Notes under the pieces: generated by a model | What the model was told of the DNA's origin: nothing | Databases searched by the model: none | The model's input: the letters and a program-made list of their open reading frames with translations, nothing else | Source: Escherichia coli | Lineage (GTDB): Bacteria > Pseudomonadota > Gammaproteobacteria > Enterobacterales > Enterobacteriaceae | Length of the DNA: 64,000 bases | Reading direction: 5' to 3' (one strand) | Assembly (NCBI RefSeq): GCF_003790525.1 | Contig: NZ_CP033635.1 | Shown: piece by piece, positions 16,589 to 55,917 of the stretch | Numbering within the stretch: position 1 is the first letter of the stretch | How the letters are laid out: the number at the start of each line of letters is the position of its first letter | Program-made: the position numbers and the translations under genes

Positions 16589-16610
16589 CCCTCTCCCTCA
16601 AGGGAGAGGG
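16589..16610. repeat. Perfect inverted repeat (10-bp arms) in the nrdD-nrdG intergenic region
   Basis: ccctctccct-ca-agggagaggg; no downstream U tract. Confidence 0.6.
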
Positions 16611-45091: not shown

Positions 45092-46585
45092 TCAGTCATT
45101 CAGTGGAAGTAATTCATTGTTGTAACTGGTGTACTTACCTTCAACGGTAAGCAAACTGCCGTTTTTATCAAGATGCGCCGCATCGAGTTGTCGAGTCTCA
45201 TTACGCCGCTTCGCATCACGTACCAGCCCATCGCCTACGTAATAAATATAGTGGTCATCATGAGCAAAGGTATCTGATAATTGACCATTGGCGTATTTAA
45301 ACCACGTCCATTGGCCTTTCAGTTCAAAATGCTCAACCGTGTCTTCATCAATAAAATACGTATAGCGATCGTCATGTGCTAAATAATTTAATGGTGTGCC
45401 ATCGGGGCTTTTATACCACTGCCATTGCCCATTAATATCAAAAATAGTCACATCATCGCGCGCGATGAAATAAATTTTGTTCCCTACAACATTAGCACCT
45501 TTCTGTAATTCTTGTTGTGGGTCTGGTAAATGTATGACCGACAGCGTTTTTTCGACCGCAGATATATATTTCACCAGATAGAGCGAATCTTTATATTGCG
45601 CCACATTCTCCGTCAGCGGGCGAAAATATTCCGGATCAACATCAGGAATTGTCGCAACCCGGCAGTCATTAGCACGCCTGGAAGCATCACGCGTCATCCA
45701 GGTTACTTTATCCCGCTGTAGGTCAAATATACTTCGGCAGTTTTTACCGAACGCATAACGTTTCTCCCCGTCTTTATCGCGATAAATTAGCAGTGAACCG
45801 GCTATCCAGCGCACAATATGAAAGGTATCCGGATCGGCGTTGATGGCATCTCCATTCACAAAGACCTGCGATTTAGTCCGCCAGATTGTATCCCAGGGTC
45901 CCGGATTACTTTTGCTTTCGCAGCTATTAGGTGAATAAATAATGGGACGACGTGTCCAGGGTTTAATGTCAAGAATAGAATACCCTTGCGCACTACCTAA
46001 CCAGCGCCCCTGAAAGTAAAGATTGCGACGATCTTTCAGCACATCCGCGGAATCAAGTGAATTCATCCTTCCCCCCACCTGTTGCAGCGAATCCATATCG
46101 ACCTGCTTTTCGCCGTGATTATCATCCGTGCGTTCGCCATCAAAATAGAGGCTGTCTTTATCGGCAGCAAAACGCCCCCATGCGCGGAATGTTGCGGCAT
46201 CGACTTTCGGTGTTCCCGGCGGGTTCTGAACTATTTTCCCTGCCCATAAAATATGGCGGCCATCAGTCAACCAGTCGAAACGCCAACCACCGTTGGTTCT
46301 GATATAAGCGCCACCATCCACCCGCACAAAATCATTATTGATATCATCAGGAGAATCATATTCATCATCAGTGCCGTCAGATACACGGCGCAGTTGTTTG
46401 AACCTCACCTGCGGTAAATGAATATCCGGAAAATAGAGTCCGTAACCATCGCTATCTTCAACAATATATTTTGTTCCTTGCCCCCACGGTTGGTAATAAA
46501 AAGAGGCAGATGGTACGCCGGAGCAGGCTATTGAATTGAGTGAAAATAAAGCCAGTGCGAGACAAACGGGTTTAATTGGTAACAT
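45092..46585 (-). CDS. Secreted repeat protein, paralogue A (497 aa), DKNYY-like repeats; function unknown
   Basis: ORF with N-terminal hydrophobic signal-like segment MLPIKPVCLALALFSLNSIAC; repeated motifs (GKIVQNPPGTPKVDAATF, DKDSLYFDGERTDD, VNGDAINADPDTFHIVRW, KIYFIARDD, YTYFIDED, YIYYVGDG); clearly paralogous to the adjacent ORF. Confidence 0.75.
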   Translation of the reverse strand: MLPIKPVCLALALFSLNSIACSGVPSASFYYQPWGQGTKYIVEDSDGYGLYFPDIHLPQVRFKQLRRVSDGTDDEYDSPDDINNDFVRVDGGAYIRTNGGWRFDWLTDGRHILWAGKIVQNPPGTPKVDAATFRAWGRFAADKDSLYFDGERTDDNHGEKQVDMDSLQQVGGRMNSLDSADVLKDRRNLYFQGRWLGSAQGYSILDIKPWTRRPIIYSPNSCESKSNPGPWDTIWRTKSQVFVNGDAINADPDTFHIVRWIAGSLLIYRDKDGEKRYAFGKNCRSIFDLQRDKVTWMTRDASRRANDCRVATIPDVDPEYFRPLTENVAQYKDSLYLVKYISAVEKTLSVIHLPDPQQELQKGANVVGNKIYFIARDDVTIFDINGQWQWYKSPDGTPLNYLAHDDRYTYFIDEDTVEHFELKGQWTWFKYANGQLSDTFAHDDHYIYYVGDGLVRDAKRRNETRQLDAAHLDKNGSLLTVEGKYTSYNNELLPLND

Positions 46586-46617
46586 AGCGTCATCCTGATG
46601 CTGTTAGCGTGAATAGG

Positions 46618-47775
46618 TTATTTAAATAAGGGTTTAAGCCCGCTCGGGGGTTGCTTCACCGATAACCAACCTCCCTTGCCTAAGTTATAACGCAGCCATT
46701 CACCTTGTTGGGCGTGTTCTTTCCCAATTCCAGTCGCTTGTTGAGTGTAAAGCTGCCCGTCTGTTGATATAAACGTGTTAGTTAATCCCCAACTACCCCC
46801 TGCTTCAAGTGAGTCGGAGAGATCCTCTGGCTTGAGATTAACCAACTCACCTTCGCCCAGGGCGTTAATTGTGACTTTATATATTTGGTTCTTATATAAA
46901 CCGGTATTCCGAACAAACAGATAAAAATATTCCGGATCAACTCCCGCCAGCGTTTCATAAATACACTCACTGCCCGCTGGAGTGGCTTCATATTTGAGCC
47001 AGGACACGTTATTCAGACCAATATTAAAAGGTGCACAGCGATAGCTGGTATCCTCCAGCTCATAGTCACGCTCGCCGCTTTTATCGCGATAAACTAAGCG
47101 TTCGCCAGGCATCCAACGTTTAATCTGAAAAGTTTTGCGATCGGCGGGCAGTGGCTTGCCATTAACAATCACCTGCGAATTTGTCTGCACAACAAATTGC
47201 AGGGAGGAATCATGCCGCAGGATTTGAAATCCGTCAGCGCTTCCCAACCAGTGCCCCTTATGCCAAAGACTATTTTTATCACGCAGTAAATTCCAGATGT
47301 CCGTCTCTTCAAGCGTTGACATATCCACCTGCTTATCACCGCTATTATCATCGGTACGCTGACCATCAAAATAGATACTGCGTTTATCAGCAGCGAAAGC
47401 GCCGAATGCCTGAAAACTGGCAGCGTCGACTATAGGTTTACCGGGGGGATTTTTCAGGACTTTGCCAGACCAAAGAACAGAGCGTCCATCGGTGAGCCAG
47501 GCATGTTCGCAATCCCCCTCATCATCGCAATCGAACTTATCGGGATTAAAATCGGACAGTAACCGGGAATCTTGTTTATTGGCTAAATTGGCAATACGCC
47601 AAAGGCGGGAAAAATTAATATCTGGTAATTCGGAGAGGATCTCATCTTTTTCCCCCTTCTGTTCGACAACATAAACCGTGCCTTTCTCCTGCTGGCGGTA
47701 ATAAAAATCCGCGCCCCAGGAAGGTGAAATAGAGGGAGGTAATGCGGCGATTAATAACCAACTGCGCTTAACCAT
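46618..47775 (-). CDS. Secreted repeat protein, paralogue B (about 386 aa), DKNYY-like repeats; function unknown
   Basis: ORF 46618..48003; probable start ATG 47773-47775 gives MVKRSWLLIAALPPSISPSWGADFYY (signal-like); shares a long conserved block with paralogue A (WLTDGR..LW.GK...NPPG.P.VDAA.F.A.G.FAADK.S.YFDG.RTDDN.G.KQVDM). Confidence 0.7.
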   Translation of the reverse strand: MVKRSWLLIAALPPSISPSWGADFYYRQQEKGTVYVVEQKGEKDEILSELPDINFSRLWRIANLANKQDSRLLSDFNPDKFDCDDEGDCEHAWLTDGRSVLWSGKVLKNPPGKPIVDAASFQAFGAFAADKRSIYFDGQRTDDNSGDKQVDMSTLEETDIWNLLRDKNSLWHKGHWLGSADGFQILRHDSSLQFVVQTNSQVIVNGKPLPADRKTFQIKRWMPGERLVYRDKSGERDYELEDTSYRCAPFNIGLNNVSWLKYEATPAGSECIYETLAGVDPEYFYLFVRNTGLYKNQIYKVTINALGEGELVNLKPEDLSDSLEAGGSWGLTNTFISTDGQLYTQQATGIGKEHAQQGEWLRYNLGKGGWLSVKQPPSGLKPLFK

Positions 47776-47863: not shown

Positions 47864-47890
47864 AGACAAAGGCACCCGCAGGTGCCTTTC
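47864..47890 (-). terminator. Intrinsic terminator downstream of cycA
   Basis: aaaggcacc-cgca-ggtgccttt hairpin followed on the minus strand by a U-rich stretch. Confidence 0.65.
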
Positions 47891-50458: not shown

Positions 50459-51088
50459 ATGCCCGGGCGCTTTGAACTAAAACCAACCCTGGAGAAAGTC
50501 TGGCACGCGCCGGACAATTTTCGCTTCATGGACCCGCTGCCGCCGATGCATCGCCGGGGAGTCATTATTGCGGCAATAGTGCTGATTATCGGTATTCTTC
50601 TGCCTGGAGATGAAACACGCCAGATGCCTGTTGTCACCCGCGAAGCGCAGTTAGATATGCAATCACCCCCCCCAGGTGAAGCACAGCTACAGGCACATTT
50701 AGTGACGCCGCAAAACGATCCGGATCAGGTCGCCCCGGTCGCGCCGGAACCTATTCAGGAAGGTCAACCTGAAGAGCCACCTGTTGCAGAGACACAATCT
50801 TTCCAACCGGAAAGTGGTATCGATCAACAGTGGCGGACATATCGCGTAGAACCAGGCAAGACCCTTGCCCAGCTGTTCCGCGACCATAATTTGCCGCCTA
50901 CAGACGTGTACGCTATGGCCCAGGTCGAGGGCGCGGATAAACCACTCAGTAACCTGCAAAATGGTCAGATTGTTAAAATCCGTCAAAATGCGAATGGGGT
51001 GGTTACCGGCTTAACCATTGATACGGGAAATAATCAGCAAGTCCTGTTCACCCGCCAACCTGATGGTAATTTCATCCGCGCACGCTGA
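50459..51088 (+). CDS. ytfB: Cell-division protein YtfB (OapA/LysM-like domain), about 209 aa
   Basis: ORF 50423..51088; ATG at 50459 preceded by GGAGCAGGAGG gives MPGRFELKPTLEKVWHAPDNFRFMDPLPPMHRR... Confidence 0.9.
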   Translation: MPGRFELKPTLEKVWHAPDNFRFMDPLPPMHRRGVIIAAIVLIIGILLPGDETRQMPVVTREAQLDMQSPPPGEAQLQAHLVTPQNDPDQVAPVAPEPIQEGQPEEPPVAETQSFQPESGIDQQWRTYRVEPGKTLAQLFRDHNLPPTDVYAMAQVEGADKPLSNLQNGQIVKIRQNANGVVTGLTIDTGNNQQVLFTRQPDGNFIRAR

Positions 51089-51727
51089 TTACCCACGGGC
51101 AGGGTTCACCAAAAGCCAGCTCAGGATGGTCTCTTTGATCACCCTGCGTCTGGCTTCCAAAGCCTCAGGTGAAACCATGCTAATGTGATAAACCATCCCC
51201 AGTGTGTACTGGTTTATTAAATAATATGCACCCAGTGCGGCGATATTAATGTTGATTTGTAAGGGATCAATATATTTCTTAAAGGTTTTCTGCCGCTGCC
51301 CTTCTTCTAATAATGAAGCCATTGACTGCAAATGTGCATGGTTAATTTCAGCGAGGCGTTTTGATTTTTTATAATGCACACCCTTACTTTGGTTTTCACT
51401 ATGGACAATTTTTAAAAACCACGGGTTATTGATGTAATAATCCCAAGTAAAATCAATTATTTTCTCGATCGCAATAACCGGCGAAAGCCCTGAAATGTCA
51501 AGCTCTCTCTCTTTTTCGCGAATATCGTTCCAGGTATATTCCAGTACTTCAATAAACAAATTTTCTTTATTACCAAAGTGGTGATAAACCGTCTGTTTAC
51601 TGCACCCTGCTGCCTTAACAATATTATCTACTCTGGCCCCTTCGTAACCATATTCGGCAAATTCATTAACCGCGCATAGCAGCAATTTTTCCTTCAGGTT
51701 TTGTGCGTGACTGGTATCAAGATACAT
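51089..51727 (-). CDS. TetR/AcrR-family transcriptional regulator (212 aa), divergent from the downstream catabolic/TRAP operon
   Basis: ORF 51089..51814; start ATG 51725-51727 with GAGGAAG RBS gives [51 protein letters not shown] (TetR HTH). Confidence 0.85.
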
Positions 51728-51848
51728 TCCACTTCCCCACTTCCTCTTCGTGATGGCTATCATAACCGGATTTGATCTCAGCGACAGCAAAAAGGATAAA
51801 AGTCGTAATTTCATTGAGTTATCAAATTACCTGTGATCACTCTCGCAT

Positions 51849-51870
51849 ATCAACCAACTAGATGGTTGAT
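51849..51870. promoter_or_regulatory. Candidate TetR operator (22-bp near-perfect palindrome)
   Basis: atcaacca-actaga-tggttgat with one central mismatch, in the divergent intergenic region between the TetR gene and the SDR gene. Confidence 0.55.
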
Positions 51871-51936
51871 CTTTTTACCTTCCAGTCGCAAGCTAATCAT
51901 CACTCAAGGAAACAATATTCAAAAGAGGGTCATTGT

Positions 51937-52728
51937 ATGAAATCCACTCGTCCTGTTGCTGTCATCACTGGTGCTGCACGTGGTATTGGAAAGGGTTGTG
52001 CGCTGGAACTTGCTCGTAGCGGGTTTAACCTGCTGATTAACGATCGCCCTGATGCCGACAGCGTAGAAAAACTGCATATCACACAACAAGAATGTATGGC
52101 AGAAGGCGTGGAGGTCATTTGCTTCCCTGCCGATGTTGGCGATCTCTCCCTGCATGAAGAGATGCTCGACGCGGCGCAAAACCAGTGGGGGCGTCTGGAC
52201 TGTCTGCTCAACAACGCAGGGATTTCAGTGAAAAAGCGCGGTGACCTCCTCGATCTCGAGCCAGACAGTTTCGACCAAAACATTGCCATCAATACCCGCG
52301 CGCCGTTCTTCCTCGCTCAGGCATTCAGTAAACGTCTGCTCGCACAGCCGAAACCGGAAGCGGAGCTGCCGCACCGCTCGATTATTTTTGTCAGTTCAAT
52401 CAACGCCATCATGCTGGCGATGAATCGCGGCGAATACACCATTGCCAAAACCGCCGTTTCTGCCGCTGCTCGTCTGTTTGCTGCTCGCCTTTGTAATGAA
52501 CAAATTGGCGTTTATGAAGTGCGTCCTGGTCTCATCAAAACCGATATGACTATTCCGGCAACGGCCTATTACGACGAACTGATTGCCAAAGGTCTGGTGC
52601 CGTGGGGACGTTGGGGTTATCCGGCTGATATTGCTTCCACTGTCCGCGCGATGGCGGAAGGTAAACTGATTTACACCTGTGGTCAGGCGGTCGCCATCGA
52701 CGGCGGCTTAAGTATGCCGCGCTTCTGA
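51937..52728 (+). CDS. Short-chain dehydrogenase/reductase (SDR), about 263 aa
   Basis: ORF 51862..52728; ATG at 51937 after AGAGGG gives MKSTRPVAVITGAARGIGKGCALELARSG (TGxxxGxG); NNAG motif; catalytic Y-x3-K (YTIAK). Confidence 0.88.
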   Translation: MKSTRPVAVITGAARGIGKGCALELARSGFNLLINDRPDADSVEKLHITQQECMAEGVEVICFPADVGDLSLHEEMLDAAQNQWGRLDCLLNNAGISVKKRGDLLDLEPDSFDQNIAINTRAPFFLAQAFSKRLLAQPKPEAELPHRSIIFVSSINAIMLAMNRGEYTIAKTAVSAAARLFAARLCNEQIGVYEVRPGLIKTDMTIPATAYYDELIAKGLVPWGRWGYPADIASTVRAMAEGKLIYTCGQAVAIDGGLSMPRF

Positions 52729-52737
52729 GGCTGAATC

Positions 52738-53580
52738 ATGAGAGATCTGTTACAACGCCCGGATTTATTCAGTATCAATACCGCGACACTGGGCTATAAA
52801 ACGCCGCTGCCCGCCATTATTGATGCCTGCGCCGCACGCGGTATTGGCGCCATTGCCCCCTGGCGCAGGGAGTTGCAGGGTGAAGATCTCCAGCAAATCG
52901 CCCGCCAGCTTGCTGCCAGTAACATAAACGTTTCCGGTTTGTGCCGTAGCACCTACTACACCGCACCGACGCTGGCGGAGCGCAAACTGGCGATTGACGA
53001 TAACCGCCGGGCGCTGGACGACGCCGCTGTACTGAACGCCGCCTGTTATATGCAGGTGGTTGGCGGTCTGCCAATGGGAACAAAAGATCTGTACGAAGCG
53101 CGGGAACAGGTGAAACAAGGGATTCGCCAGTTGCTGCCACATTCGAAAGATGTCGGTGTGCCAATTGCACTGGAGCCACTGCACCCGATGACTGCTGCCG
53201 ATCGTTCTTGTCTGTGCACGTTACGTCAGGCGCTGGACTGGTGTGATGAACTCGATCCCGATGGCGAATTTGGCCTCGGCGTGGCGGTAGATGTCTACCA
53301 TGTCTGGTGGGATCCGGATCTCGTCAGTCAGATCCTGCGTGCCGGAAAACGCATCCTCGCGTTTCATGTTTCCGACTGGTTAGTGCCGACCACCGATCTG
53401 GTCAATGACCGTGGAATGCCGGGAGATGGTGTCATCAATATTCCGTCAATTCGTCGGCTGGTTGAAAACGCCGGATTTAATGGCGCTATTGAACTGGAAA
53501 TATTCTCACCGTATTGGTGGCAGCAAGATATTGACAGCACACTGGATATTAGCGTCGATCGCATCGCGCATTATTGCTAA
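52738..53580 (+). CDS. Xylose-isomerase-like TIM-barrel protein (sugar-phosphate isomerase/epimerase or dehydratase-type), 280 aa
   Basis: ORF MRDLLQRPDLFSINTATLGYKTPLPAIIDACAARGIGAIAPW... with features typical of the AP-endonuclease-2/xylose-isomerase TIM-barrel family; assignment from fold-family resemblance only. Confidence 0.65.
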   Translation: MRDLLQRPDLFSINTATLGYKTPLPAIIDACAARGIGAIAPWRRELQGEDLQQIARQLAASNINVSGLCRSTYYTAPTLAERKLAIDDNRRALDDAAVLNAACYMQVVGGLPMGTKDLYEAREQVKQGIRQLLPHSKDVGVPIALEPLHPMTAADRSCLCTLRQALDWCDELDPDGEFGLGVAVDVYHVWWDPDLVSQILRAGKRILAFHVSDWLVPTTDLVNDRGMPGDGVINIPSIRRLVENAGFNGAIELEIFSPYWWQQDIDSTLDISVDRIAHYC

Positions 53581-53589
53581 GGAATAATC

Positions 53590-54366
53590 ATGAGTGACCA
53601 ACCCGTTCTGTTCAGCAGAGCGGCGGCTTCTTGCCGCCTGACATTGAACCGTGAAGATAAATGTCATGCTATTAATGAAGAAATGATCGAATCTCTCGAC
53701 CATTATTTAAATGAAATTGAAAACGACACCACATTACGATTAGTCGAATTAACGGCAACCGGCGATAAATTCTTTTGTGCAGGCGGCGATATTAAATCGT
53801 GGTCAGCCTATTCGCCATTAGATATGGGCAGAAAATGGATTAAACGCGGCAATGACGTTTTTAATCGCCTGCGCAATTTACCTCAATTAACGGTTGCGAA
53901 TCTCAACGGTCATACCATCGGCGGTGGTATTGAACTTGCCTTGTGCTGCGATATTCGTATTGCTCGCCCCAGCGCGAAATTCTCTAATCCGGAAGTAATG
54001 CTCGGCATGGTGCCTGGCTGGATGGGCATTGAACGCGTGCTTAATCAGGTCGGTCCGGTGGTCGGTCGCCAGATGCTGATGCTGGGTAAACGCCTGACGG
54101 CGCAGGAAGCTCAGGCGGCGAATTTAATTGATGAAGTGGTAGAAAAAGAACAGGTGGAAAGCTGGATGGCGAATCAGTTAGCGCAGCTGGAAAAATGTGG
54201 TCCGGTGGCGCTTGCACATATTAAGCAACTGATTCTGGCACTGGAAAATAAACATGCCGATTACCCGCACCAGCTACTGGCCGGATTAATGTCCGCCACT
54301 CAGGATTGCCAGCAGGCGACGCGCGCCTTTGCCGAAAAAAGTAGCGTGAGCTTCCATAATCAATAA
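53590..54366 (+). CDS. Enoyl-CoA hydratase/isomerase (crotonase superfamily), 258 aa
   Basis: ORF contains crotonase oxyanion-hole motifs (FCAGGDIK ... GHTIGGGIELALCCDIRIA). Confidence 0.85.
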   Translation: MSDQPVLFSRAAASCRLTLNREDKCHAINEEMIESLDHYLNEIENDTTLRLVELTATGDKFFCAGGDIKSWSAYSPLDMGRKWIKRGNDVFNRLRNLPQLTVANLNGHTIGGGIELALCCDIRIARPSAKFSNPEVMLGMVPGWMGIERVLNQVGPVVGRQMLMLGKRLTAQEAQAANLIDEVVEKEQVESWMANQLAQLEKCGPVALAHIKQLILALENKHADYPHQLLAGLMSATQDCQQATRAFAEKSSVSFHNQ

Positions 54367-54375
54367 GGAAATTGT

Positions 54376-55917
54376 ATGCGTAAGATAACAACCGCCGAGG
54401 CACTGGCGGCGCAAATTCAGGACGGTGCGACTATTGCTATTAGCGGTAACGGCGGCGGTATGGTGGAAGCCGACCATATTCTGGCTGCTATTGAAGCGCG
54501 TTTCCTGCAAACCGGACACCCGCGCGATCTGACATTAATCCACTCGCTGGGTATTGGCGATCGCGACAGCAAAGGCACTAACCGTTTTGCTCACGCCGAA
54601 ATGCTCAAACGCATTATTGCCGGACATTTTACCTGGTCGCCCAAGATGCAGGAACTGGTGAAAAGCAATGCTATTGAAGCCTACTGTTTCCCTGGTGGCG
54701 TGATTCAGGCGTTGCTACGGGAGATCGGTGCCGGACGTCCGGGGCTTTTTACCCACGTTGGGCTGGGATCGTTTGTTGATCCACGCAATGGCGGCGGTAA
54801 GTCGAATGAATGCACTACCACCGACCTGGTAGAACTGATTGAAATCGATGGTGAAACCAAACTTCGTTATCGCCCTTTCAAAGTGGATTACGCGATTTTG
54901 CGTGGCACTTATGCCGATCCTCGAGGCAACGTCAGCCTTGAAGAAGAAGCGATTGATATGGATAGCTATTCCATGGCGCTGGCAGCACACAACAGCGGCG
55001 GCAAAGTGTTCGTACAGGTACGCGATGTGCTGGAAGCTGGCGCGATTGAACCACGTCGGGTCAAATTACCGGGGATTCTGGTTGATGGCATCGTTGAGCA
55101 CCGCGAACAACCGCAAACCTATCTTGGTGGTTACGACCTGACCATTAGCGGTCAACATCGCCGTCTAAGTTCTAACGACGCTATTGAACTGGTTAGTCAT
55201 CCGGTGCGTCGCCTGATTGCCCGTCGGGCAGCACGGGAACTGGTGGCAGGCGCTTCAACCAACTTTGGCTTTGGTATTCCGGGCGGTATTCCAGGCGTAG
55301 CGCTGCGCGAAGGCGTGCCTTATCAAAGTTTGTGGCTGAGTGTAGAACAGGGTGTACATAACGGCATGATGCTGGATGATGCTCTGTTCGGCTGCGCCCG
55401 TAACGCCGATGCCATTATTCCATCACTCGATCAATTCGAATTCTACAGTGGCGGAGGGATCGATATCACCTTCCTCGGCATGGGAGAGATGGATCAGTAC
55501 GGTAACGTCAACGTCTCCCATCTCAATGGCAATCTGATTGGCCCCGGCGGATTTCTCGAAATTGCGCAAAACGCCCGTAAAGTGGTGTTCTGCGGCACGT
55601 TCGACGCCAAAGGTAGCAAGATTGATGTAACGCCAGATGGCTTGCATATCGCCCAGTCAGGTCAAATCCCTAAACTGGTTACCCAGGTGGAAAAAATCAC
55701 TTTTAGCGCCGCCTACGCACAGCAAAGTGGTCAGGAAGTGTTGTATATCACTGAACGTGCAGTATTCCAGTTAACGGCAGAAGGCGTTGAATTAATTGAA
55801 ATCGCACCAGGTGTGGAGATTGAGCGCGACATTCTGCCGTATATGGCCTTCCGTCCAATTATCAATCAGCCACGCCTGATGGAAAGTAGCCTGTTTACGC
55901 CGATGGAGGATGCATGA
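54376..55917 (+). CDS. Family I CoA-transferase with fused alpha/beta subunits, YdiF-like (513 aa)
   Basis: Alignable by eye to E. coli YdiF along its length (GLGSFVDPRNGGGK, KLPGILVDGIV, YITERAVFQLTAEGVELIEIAPGVEIERDILPYM). Confidence 0.85.
   Translation: MRKITTAEALAAQIQDGATIAISGNGGGMVEADHILAAIEARFLQTGHPRDLTLIHSLGIGDRDSKGTNRFAHAEMLKRIIAGHFTWSPKMQELVKSNAIEAYCFPGGVIQALLREIGAGRPGLFTHVGLGSFVDPRNGGGKSNECTTTDLVELIEIDGETKLRYRPFKVDYAILRGTYADPRGNVSLEEEAIDMDSYSMALAAHNSGGKVFVQVRDVLEAGAIEPRRVKLPGILVDGIVEHREQPQTYLGGYDLTISGQHRRLSSNDAIELVSHPVRRLIARRAARELVAGASTNFGFGIPGGIPGVALREGVPYQSLWLSVEQGVHNGMMLDDALFGCARNADAIIPSLDQFEFYSGGGIDITFLGMGEMDQYGNVNVSHLNGNLIGPGGFLEIAQNARKVVFCGTFDAKGSKIDVTPDGLHIAQSGQIPKLVTQVEKITFSAAYAQQSGQEVLYITERAVFQLTAEGVELIEIAPGVEIERDILPYMAFRPIINQPRLMESSLFTPMEDA

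Follow-up and report, generated by a model that had tools for sequence, protein, structure and literature searches.

The ytfA locus and its divergent operon

The window analyzed in this study is a stretch of 64,000 nucleotides from the Escherichia coli contig NZ_CP033635.1 (assembly GCF_003790525.1), and all positions refer to it unless stated otherwise. On its minus strand lies a gene for a TetR-family regulator of 212 aa (51089-51727; protein WP_001361377.1), which was identified by its Pfam hits and its RefSeq annotation (TetR/AcrR family regulator) and carries the name ytfA in the literature (PMC6790063; PMC4287617). YtfA contains a TetR_N domain (PF00440, residues 19-61, 1.7e-14) and a TetR_C_29 ligand domain (PF17938, residues 83-201, 1e-30), the latter being a domain without a characterized member. 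The PDB holds 88 TetR-family matches to YtfA, the best relative being an unannotated structural-genomics entry (3npi), and the NCBIfam model for FadR scores 41 bits, with a cut-off of 200. Sequence similarity of YtfA to TetR-type repressors of CoA-dependent pathways is limited to the helix-turn-helix (HTH). In some databases the Salmonella orthologue is auto-annotated as ‘KstR2’, which is an annotation transfer and not evidence. The gene itself occurs in some E. coli strains and not in others, which is all that is reported of it, and no function has been assigned to it (PMC6790063).

Divergent from ytfA and separated from it by an intergenic region of 209 bp (51728-51936), eight plus-strand genes form the presumed target operon (51937-60860), whose order next to the TetR gene is constant in every orthologous locus as far as these were fetched. 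The first gene encodes a short-chain dehydrogenase/reductase (SDR; 51937-52728), so that the divergent TetR and SDR genes named in the preliminary description are indeed present, the former on the minus and the latter on the plus strand. The SDR gene is followed by genes for a xylose-isomerase-like TIM barrel protein (52738-53580), an enoyl-CoA hydratase (53590-54366), a family I CoA-transferase of the FadX/YdiF type (54376-55917), a FAD_binding_2 flavoprotein of 693 aa related to fumarate reductase and aspartate oxidase (55914-57995), and the three components of a TRAP transporter, specifically the small permease (58016-58492), the large permease (58535-59836) and the solute-binding protein (59889-60860), after which the operon ends before rplI. 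The TetR gene is the only regulator gene in this cassette. In the NCBIfam search of the operon enzymes no equivalog exceeded its cut-off except a generic SDR model, and the NCBIfam and PDB searches together matched the enzymes to no specific function and no characterized pathway. The gene content suggests a pathway akin to beta-oxidation, but lacking a thiolase, for an organic acid taken up by the cell; the function of the operon is described in no paper of the literature searched.

Three further observations concern the surroundings of the cassette and its state in other strains. The plus-strand gene ytfB and the TetR gene converge at 51088/51089 with zero bases between their stop codons, and in other E. 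coli alleles the two genes share 17 nt at their ends, with no space for terminators in between. Two hypothetical genes (~497 and ~385 aa, approximately 45092-47775, minus strand) lie between ytfE and cycA; this pair is missing from K-12, where cycA adjoins ytfE. In the clinical isolate FXCREC035 (locus 255-2780) the TetR gene is disrupted by copies of ISApl1, which makes this strain a natural ytfA knockout.

In K-12 MG1655, only a C-terminal ytfA fragment and a 72-bp remnant of the SDR gene are left (4695-5096 of the fetched locus). The HTH region, the intergenic region (with the candidate operator and the CRP site discussed below) and the whole operon are deleted, with yjfZ in their place. 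Because the K-12 copy is a C-terminal pseudogene remnant, perturbation phenotypes of ‘ytfA’ in K-12 cannot reflect the normal function of the regulator, and the same circumstance is probably the reason why YtfA has never been studied. In the literature searched, ytfA appears only as present or absent, as the K-12 pseudogene, or as the label of a CRP peak.

A near-perfect palindrome in the intergenic region

The AT-rich sequence ATCAACCAACTAGATGGTTGAT at 51849-51870, between the two divergent gene starts, is a 22-bp palindrome in which 10 of the 11 pairs are complementary. Both 8-bp arms are perfect, the sole mispair is A-A at pair 9/14, and the central CTAG is self-complementary. The sequence, the coordinates, the perfect arms and the single central mismatch are thus as the preliminary description had given them. 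We delimit a conserved core of 16 bp within the palindrome (AACCAACTAGATGGTT, 51852-51867), consisting of the half-sites AACCA and TGGTT, the centers of which are 11 bp apart, i.e., about one helical turn. This spacing, together with a length of 22 bp and 10 paired positions out of 11, agrees with the size, about 15-30 bp, and the symmetry typical of operators of TetR-family proteins, for which the palindrome had originally been singled out.

We found three gapless 22-bp palindromes with at least 10 of 11 pairs in the 64-kb window, where first-order Markov simulations predict 0.84; for a region of 210 bp the same simulations predict 0.003. The remaining two (16589-16610 and 47868-47889) are probably intrinsic terminators, since they are GC-rich hairpins located immediately 3' of genes; the one at 47868-47889 follows cycA and is itself followed by a T-rich run.

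Conservation of the palindrome with the cassette

The palindrome was compared across 16 orthologous loci from at least eight genera. A profile search of genome contigs with the TetR alignment returned six true orthologous loci, the rest being unrelated TetR genes of Actinobacteria. The loci of E. whittamii, E. albertii, Klebsiella spallanzanii and Entomohabitans come from this contig search and the others from exact-protein look-ups. Escherichia is represented by three species, further loci belong to Salmonella, Citrobacter, Lelliottia and Leminorella, and five are divergent cassettes on metagenome or unplaced contigs, with TetR proteins that are 58-65% identical and with unrelated outer flanks. 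Two frameshift-ridden assemblies (L091 and L092) were excluded from the footprint alignment.

The divergent TetR-SDR arrangement and the palindrome site are found in 16 of 16 loci, and the AACCA-N6-TGGTT core is invariant in all of them, except that L099, the most distant locus, differs at one outer base. The site takes the form A(T/C)CAACCAAC(T/C)AGATGGTTGAT in cassettes of the E. coli type and CTTAACCAACTATTTGGTTGAT in the divergent cassettes. In the alignment of 13 sequences, 15 of the 22 palindrome columns are invariant vs. 18 of 187 elsewhere in the intergenic region (Fisher p = 3e-9), and the palindrome is the top sliding window of 22 columns, with a mean column identity of 0.92 vs. 0.66. 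The site moves with the TetR-SDR cassette into unrelated genomic contexts, as seen in Leminorella and on the metagenome contigs.

A position weight matrix (PWM) scan of the 13 loci gave exactly one strong hit in each (28-35 bits); a second operator was sought in the same scan, and nothing besides the true site exceeded 11.5 bits. Across the whole window, the core pattern with one mismatch allowed occurs three times vs. 2.0 expected, which is chance level. One such sequence, ATACACCATAGATATGGTTTTA (58447-58468), lies inside the 3' end of the gene for the TRAP small permease, upstream of the start of the large-permease gene. We rejected it as a second operator, as it scores 10.3 bits vs. 28-35 at the true sites and is at chance level.

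The regulator shows a matching pattern of conservation. Among the 14 intact YtfA orthologues whose site has an unaltered core, identity in the DNA-binding domain is 92-100%, the recognition helix being unchanged, whereas identity in the ligand domain is 50-81%. A conserved reader fits with conserved half-sites.

Within E. coli, the cassette locus is present in ~3130 of 5426 complete genomes (58%), including those of Nissle 1917 and ETEC H10407. By BLAST, 2640 of 3133 E. coli genomes match a 261-bp intergenic query with an identity of only 80-90%, while in 3086 of 3143 the identity over the 32 nt around the palindrome center is 95% or higher. In the 5426 genomes this 32-mer, a query that reveals near-identical copies only, matches a median of one place per genome and a maximum of two. 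In aligned representatives of the E. coli allele classes the arms are invariant, and the sole change is a central T to C (CTAG to CCAG). The E. coli cassette alleles differ by up to 20% in DNA, far beyond the normal divergence of the core genome, and the TetR protein of the window (strain SMS-3-5) is 87% identical to the Citrobacter protein vs. 83% to the commonest E. coli allele. Such divergent alleles, a Citrobacter-like TetR and the unrelated contexts in Leminorella and on metagenome contigs suggest that the cassette has been exchanged horizontally and repeatedly.

Conservation of this kind could also mark the site of a protein other than the adjacent TetR regulator, such as a global regulator or a nucleoid protein like IHF. 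Apart from one mismatch, the left arm TATCAACCAACTA agrees with the IHF consensus WATCAANNNNTTR, and a global regulator, CRP, binds next door (see below). The conserved positions are, however, two-fold symmetric (AACCA/TGGTT), unlike the asymmetric IHF motif, and in the divergent cassettes (CTTAACC...) the ATCAA part of the IHF-like match has disappeared but not the symmetric core. We consider such a site for another protein unlikely, also in view of its distribution: at the sensitivity of BLAST, E. coli genomes with the cassette have a single copy of the motif and those lacking it have none, cassettes in other genera and contexts bring the motif along, and the HTH of their sole regulator is conserved to the same degree. 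The spacing of the palindrome does not appear to fit palindromic E. coli operators such as those of RutR (ACCA-N2-TGGT) or FadR, and readings of the RutR, FadR or TrpR type were set aside on symmetry or spacing.

Geometry of the site and a putative operon promoter

The center of the palindrome is at 51859.5. The preliminary description had placed it midway between the divergent starts; it does lie inside the intergenic region but is nearer to the SDR start (77.5 nt) than to the ATG of the TetR gene (132.5 nt). The distance to the SDR ATG is kept at 74.5-81.5 nt in every locus, whereas the TetR ATG lies 127 to 152 nt away, or 348.5 nt in Entomohabitans, where ~210 bp are inserted on the regulator side and the SDR-side distance is still kept. 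The intergenic region measures 204-233 bp over the loci and 423 bp in Entomohabitans. With a fixed distance to the SDR start and a variable one to the regulator gene, the site would belong to the operon promoter.

A strict sigma-70 consensus scan of 51600-52050 returned no promoter, after which the promoter was assigned by positional conservation across the loci. The predicted -35 element TTGATC (51866-51871, plus strand; variants TTGATA and TTGTTC) consists of the last 5 nt of the palindrome plus one more. It is followed, after exactly 17 bp of variable spacer, by the predicted -10 element CAAGCT (51889-51894), which reads CATnnT in other genera, with A2 and T6 invariant. The arrangement of -35, 17-bp spacer and CAnnnT recurs in 13 of 13 loci and is the only positionally conserved promoter-like pair, with G51888, C51889, A51890 and T51894 as the invariant columns at the predicted -10; non-conserved candidates outscore it in individual loci. 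An alternative promoter with the -10 sequence AACTAT inside the palindrome was rejected, being found in the divergent cassettes only (the E. coli type has AACTAG). The implied transcription start site (TSS) is at ~51899-51902, and the palindrome would thus overlap the -35 of the operon promoter, with its center at approximately -41.5. The promoter is a weak match to sigma-70 (6-7 of 12 consensus positions), which is not surprising for an activator-dependent promoter, as these are expected to match poorly.

On the other side of the intergenic region, we predict a -10 element of the ytfA promoter, TATGAT (51759-51764, minus strand). It recurs in 13 loci at a distance of 31-45 nt from the TetR ATG, on the upstream side, and reads TATAAT in Entomohabitans and TGnTATAGT in the divergent cassettes. 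The implied ytfA TSS is near 51752, and the palindrome would lie ~107 bp upstream of it. Autoregulation through the palindrome is therefore not indicated: the predicted -10 of ytfA stays with the regulator gene, ~100 bp away.

A CRP site adjoining the palindrome

The palindrome is directly abutted by a CRP site that matches TGTGA-N6-TCACA with one mismatch (TGTGATCACTCTCGCA, 51832-51847, center 51839.5) and that was absent from the preliminary description. A CRP motif with zero to two mismatches to the consensus lies 19-20 bp upstream of the palindrome center in all 16 loci, and that of Leminorella is a perfect match. Binding in vivo has been reported for ETEC H10407, in which CRP ChIP-seq gave a high-confidence peak labeled ‘ETEC-specific/ytfA’ (ETEC_4557) with the MEME site TGTGATCACTATCGCA (PMC4287617). 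We found that TGTGATCACTATCGCA is the H10407 allele of the window's CRP site and directly abuts the palindrome there; the peak center (4940903) and the motif (4941093-4941108) are ~190-205 bp apart.

If transcription starts where the predicted -10 implies, the CRP site is centered at -60.5 to -61.5. A center near -61.5 is a classic class I position of CRP, other class I centers being -71.5, -82.5 and -92.5. As a separate observation, two GATC (Dam) sites lie 33 bp apart, one in the CRP site (51835-51838) and one at the right end of the palindrome, in the -35 (51868-51871). Dam methylation could influence protein binding at the CRP site or the palindrome.

The position of the palindrome leaves room for a different mode of action by the same protein, in which YtfA binds the site but acts as an activator, or as a co-activator with CRP, from approximately -41.5 in a class II-like manner. 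This is the classic position of class II activators, and with the predicted TSS the center of the site falls there, next to a weak core promoter. A minority of TetR-family proteins do activate, e.g., AtrA, although most characterized members with divergent neighbors are repressors (PMC3511530). The site extends over the predicted -35 as well as the stretch with which the alpha-CTD of the polymerase interacts at class I CRP promoters, and substrate-induced derepression suits a catabolic operon that brings its own transporter; we regard activation by YtfA as quite improbable. The length of the intergenic region calls for mild caution with regard to repression as well. Divergent TetR regulators with intergenic regions shorter than 200 bp repress their neighbors through palindromic sites (Ahn, Cuthbertson and Nodwell, 2012; PMC3511530), whereas above 200 bp three of four regulators did not regulate the divergent neighbor (PMC3511530), and the ytfA locus is just over this limit.

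RNA-level and chance explanations

A palindrome of this size might alternatively act in RNA, as the hairpin of an intrinsic terminator or attenuator on the plus strand followed by a U-run. A consensus scan does flag it as terminator-like (a stem of eight pairs, a loop of 6 nt and then CTTTTTACC), its RNA folds at -9 kcal/mol (z = -3.1), and a T-run follows the palindrome in most loci. This T-run is missing in Lelliottia and Entomohabitans, only three of the eight stem pairs are G-C, and the divergent form of the site folds at -6.6 kcal/mol (z = -1). The variation between loci does not preserve pairing either: positions 1-3 vary while 20-22 do not, and the changes from CTAG to CCAG or CTAT break pairs. 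Furthermore, the site is located in the gap between the two predicted divergent TSSs, where it would be transcribed by neither promoter; there is no 3' end of a plus-strand gene close by in Leminorella or on the metagenome contigs, the real terminator palindromes of the window are GC-rich and directly 3' of genes, and no Rfam family matches. We rejected the terminator as highly improbable, because there is one such site per locus and there are no compensatory changes.

That the palindrome is a functionless chance sequence can practically be dismissed, since, although ~0.84 near-perfect palindromes of 22 bp are expected per 64 kb, only ~0.003 are expected in a 210-bp region, and invariance over 16 loci from at least eight genera within poorly conserved DNA (p = 3e-9) is incompatible with neutrality.

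A proposed model for the control of the operon by YtfA and CRP

We consider it probable that the palindrome is the operator through which YtfA represses a weak, CRP-dependent operon promoter, to be released by the imported acid or its CoA thioester. Every available computational test favors the proposal in the preliminary description that the palindrome is a candidate operator tied to the local TetR protein: the half-sites are near-invariant, the site travels with the cassette, the HTH is conserved, each locus has a single site, and this site overlaps the conserved -35/-10 pair. The present analysis would refine the proposal in three respects, in that the core is 16 bp long, the site lies on the promoter of the operon and is not common to both genes, and a CRP site adjoins it. 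The palindrome with its conservation and fixed geometry and the TetR domains are established here, and in vivo CRP binding in H10407 is taken from the literature; from these we infer the binding of YtfA, the positions of promoter and TSS, repression rather than activation, and the class of the inducer.

In the proposed mechanism, one YtfA homodimer would contact AACCA and TGGTT with one helix-turn-helix motif each. The operon promoter (TTGATC, 17 bp, CAAGCT; TSS ~51901) would depend on CRP bound at approximately -61.5, and bound YtfA would occlude the -35 hexamer together with the stretch that separates CRP from RNA polymerase, thereby blocking initiation as well as CRP-dependent recruitment. 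The inducer, presumably the organic acid imported by the TRAP transporter or the CoA thioester of that acid, would be bound by the variable C-terminal domain, whereupon the repressor would leave the DNA. Expression of the operon would then require both the presence of the substrate and a lack of glucose, with CRP providing catabolite control.

The putative switch has much in common with TetR/tetO and with other divergent pairs (ActR, SCO4099, SimR, DesT, QacR; PMC3511530), in which a regulator with a TetR_N HTH is divergent from its target. The shared features are a palindromic intergenic operator of ~15-22 bp with half-sites about one helical turn apart and, by analogy, an expected relief of repression by a ligand. 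Unlike tetO, which comprises two operators, the ytfA locus has one, which would serve the target promoter only, with no autoregulation of the tetR kind indicated. The intergenic region is also slightly longer than 200 bp, and the target is a catabolic operon containing a TRAP transporter instead of the efflux pump of the TetR/tetO paradigm.

FadR of Bacillus and Thermus, KstR2, PaaR and DesT are TetR-type repressors of CoA-dependent catabolic pathways, the inducers of which are often acyl-CoA intermediates. In these systems, much as at the ytfA locus, the TetR gene lies beside genes for a CoA-transferase or ligase, an enoyl-CoA hydratase and dehydrogenases. The AACCA-N6-TGGTT motif is not known to match their published motifs.

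The predicted promoter would be reminiscent of a class I CRP promoter of the lac type, with CRP ~61.5 bp upstream of the predicted TSS, a weak core and a pathway-specific repressor. It would differ from lac in the position of the operator. At lac, O1 overlaps the TSS; here the candidate operator lies between CRP and the -10, over the predicted -35. The putative repressor also belongs to the TetR instead of the LacI family, and the TSS is a predicted one.

Neither the sequence of the palindrome nor binding by YtfA is found in any paper of the literature searched. The novelty would lie in connecting YtfA and its operon with an operator, a promoter model and a CRP input; the switch as such is conventional.

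Implications

YtfA is among the few TetR-family regulators of E. coli for which no target, operator or ligand has been described. More tentatively, and as a possibility that we hold to be less likely true than not true, the operator and the CRP site may form the switch of an undescribed CoA-dependent pathway for an organic acid imported by the TRAP transporter, with YtfA sensing a novel metabolite or CoA thioester through TetR_C_29 and with the cassette being exchanged among gut Enterobacteriaceae. If so, a reporter built on YtfA and its operator would be a biosensor revealing the substrate and, with it, a new nutrient niche relevant to the gut. Most pathogenic and commensal lineages of E. coli, and Salmonella, carry this nine-gene cassette for catabolism and transport. 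What it does could be uncovered with the cheap experimental handle that the candidate operator, the promoter model and the CRP site offer, in the form of EMSA probes and a substrate-derepressed reporter.
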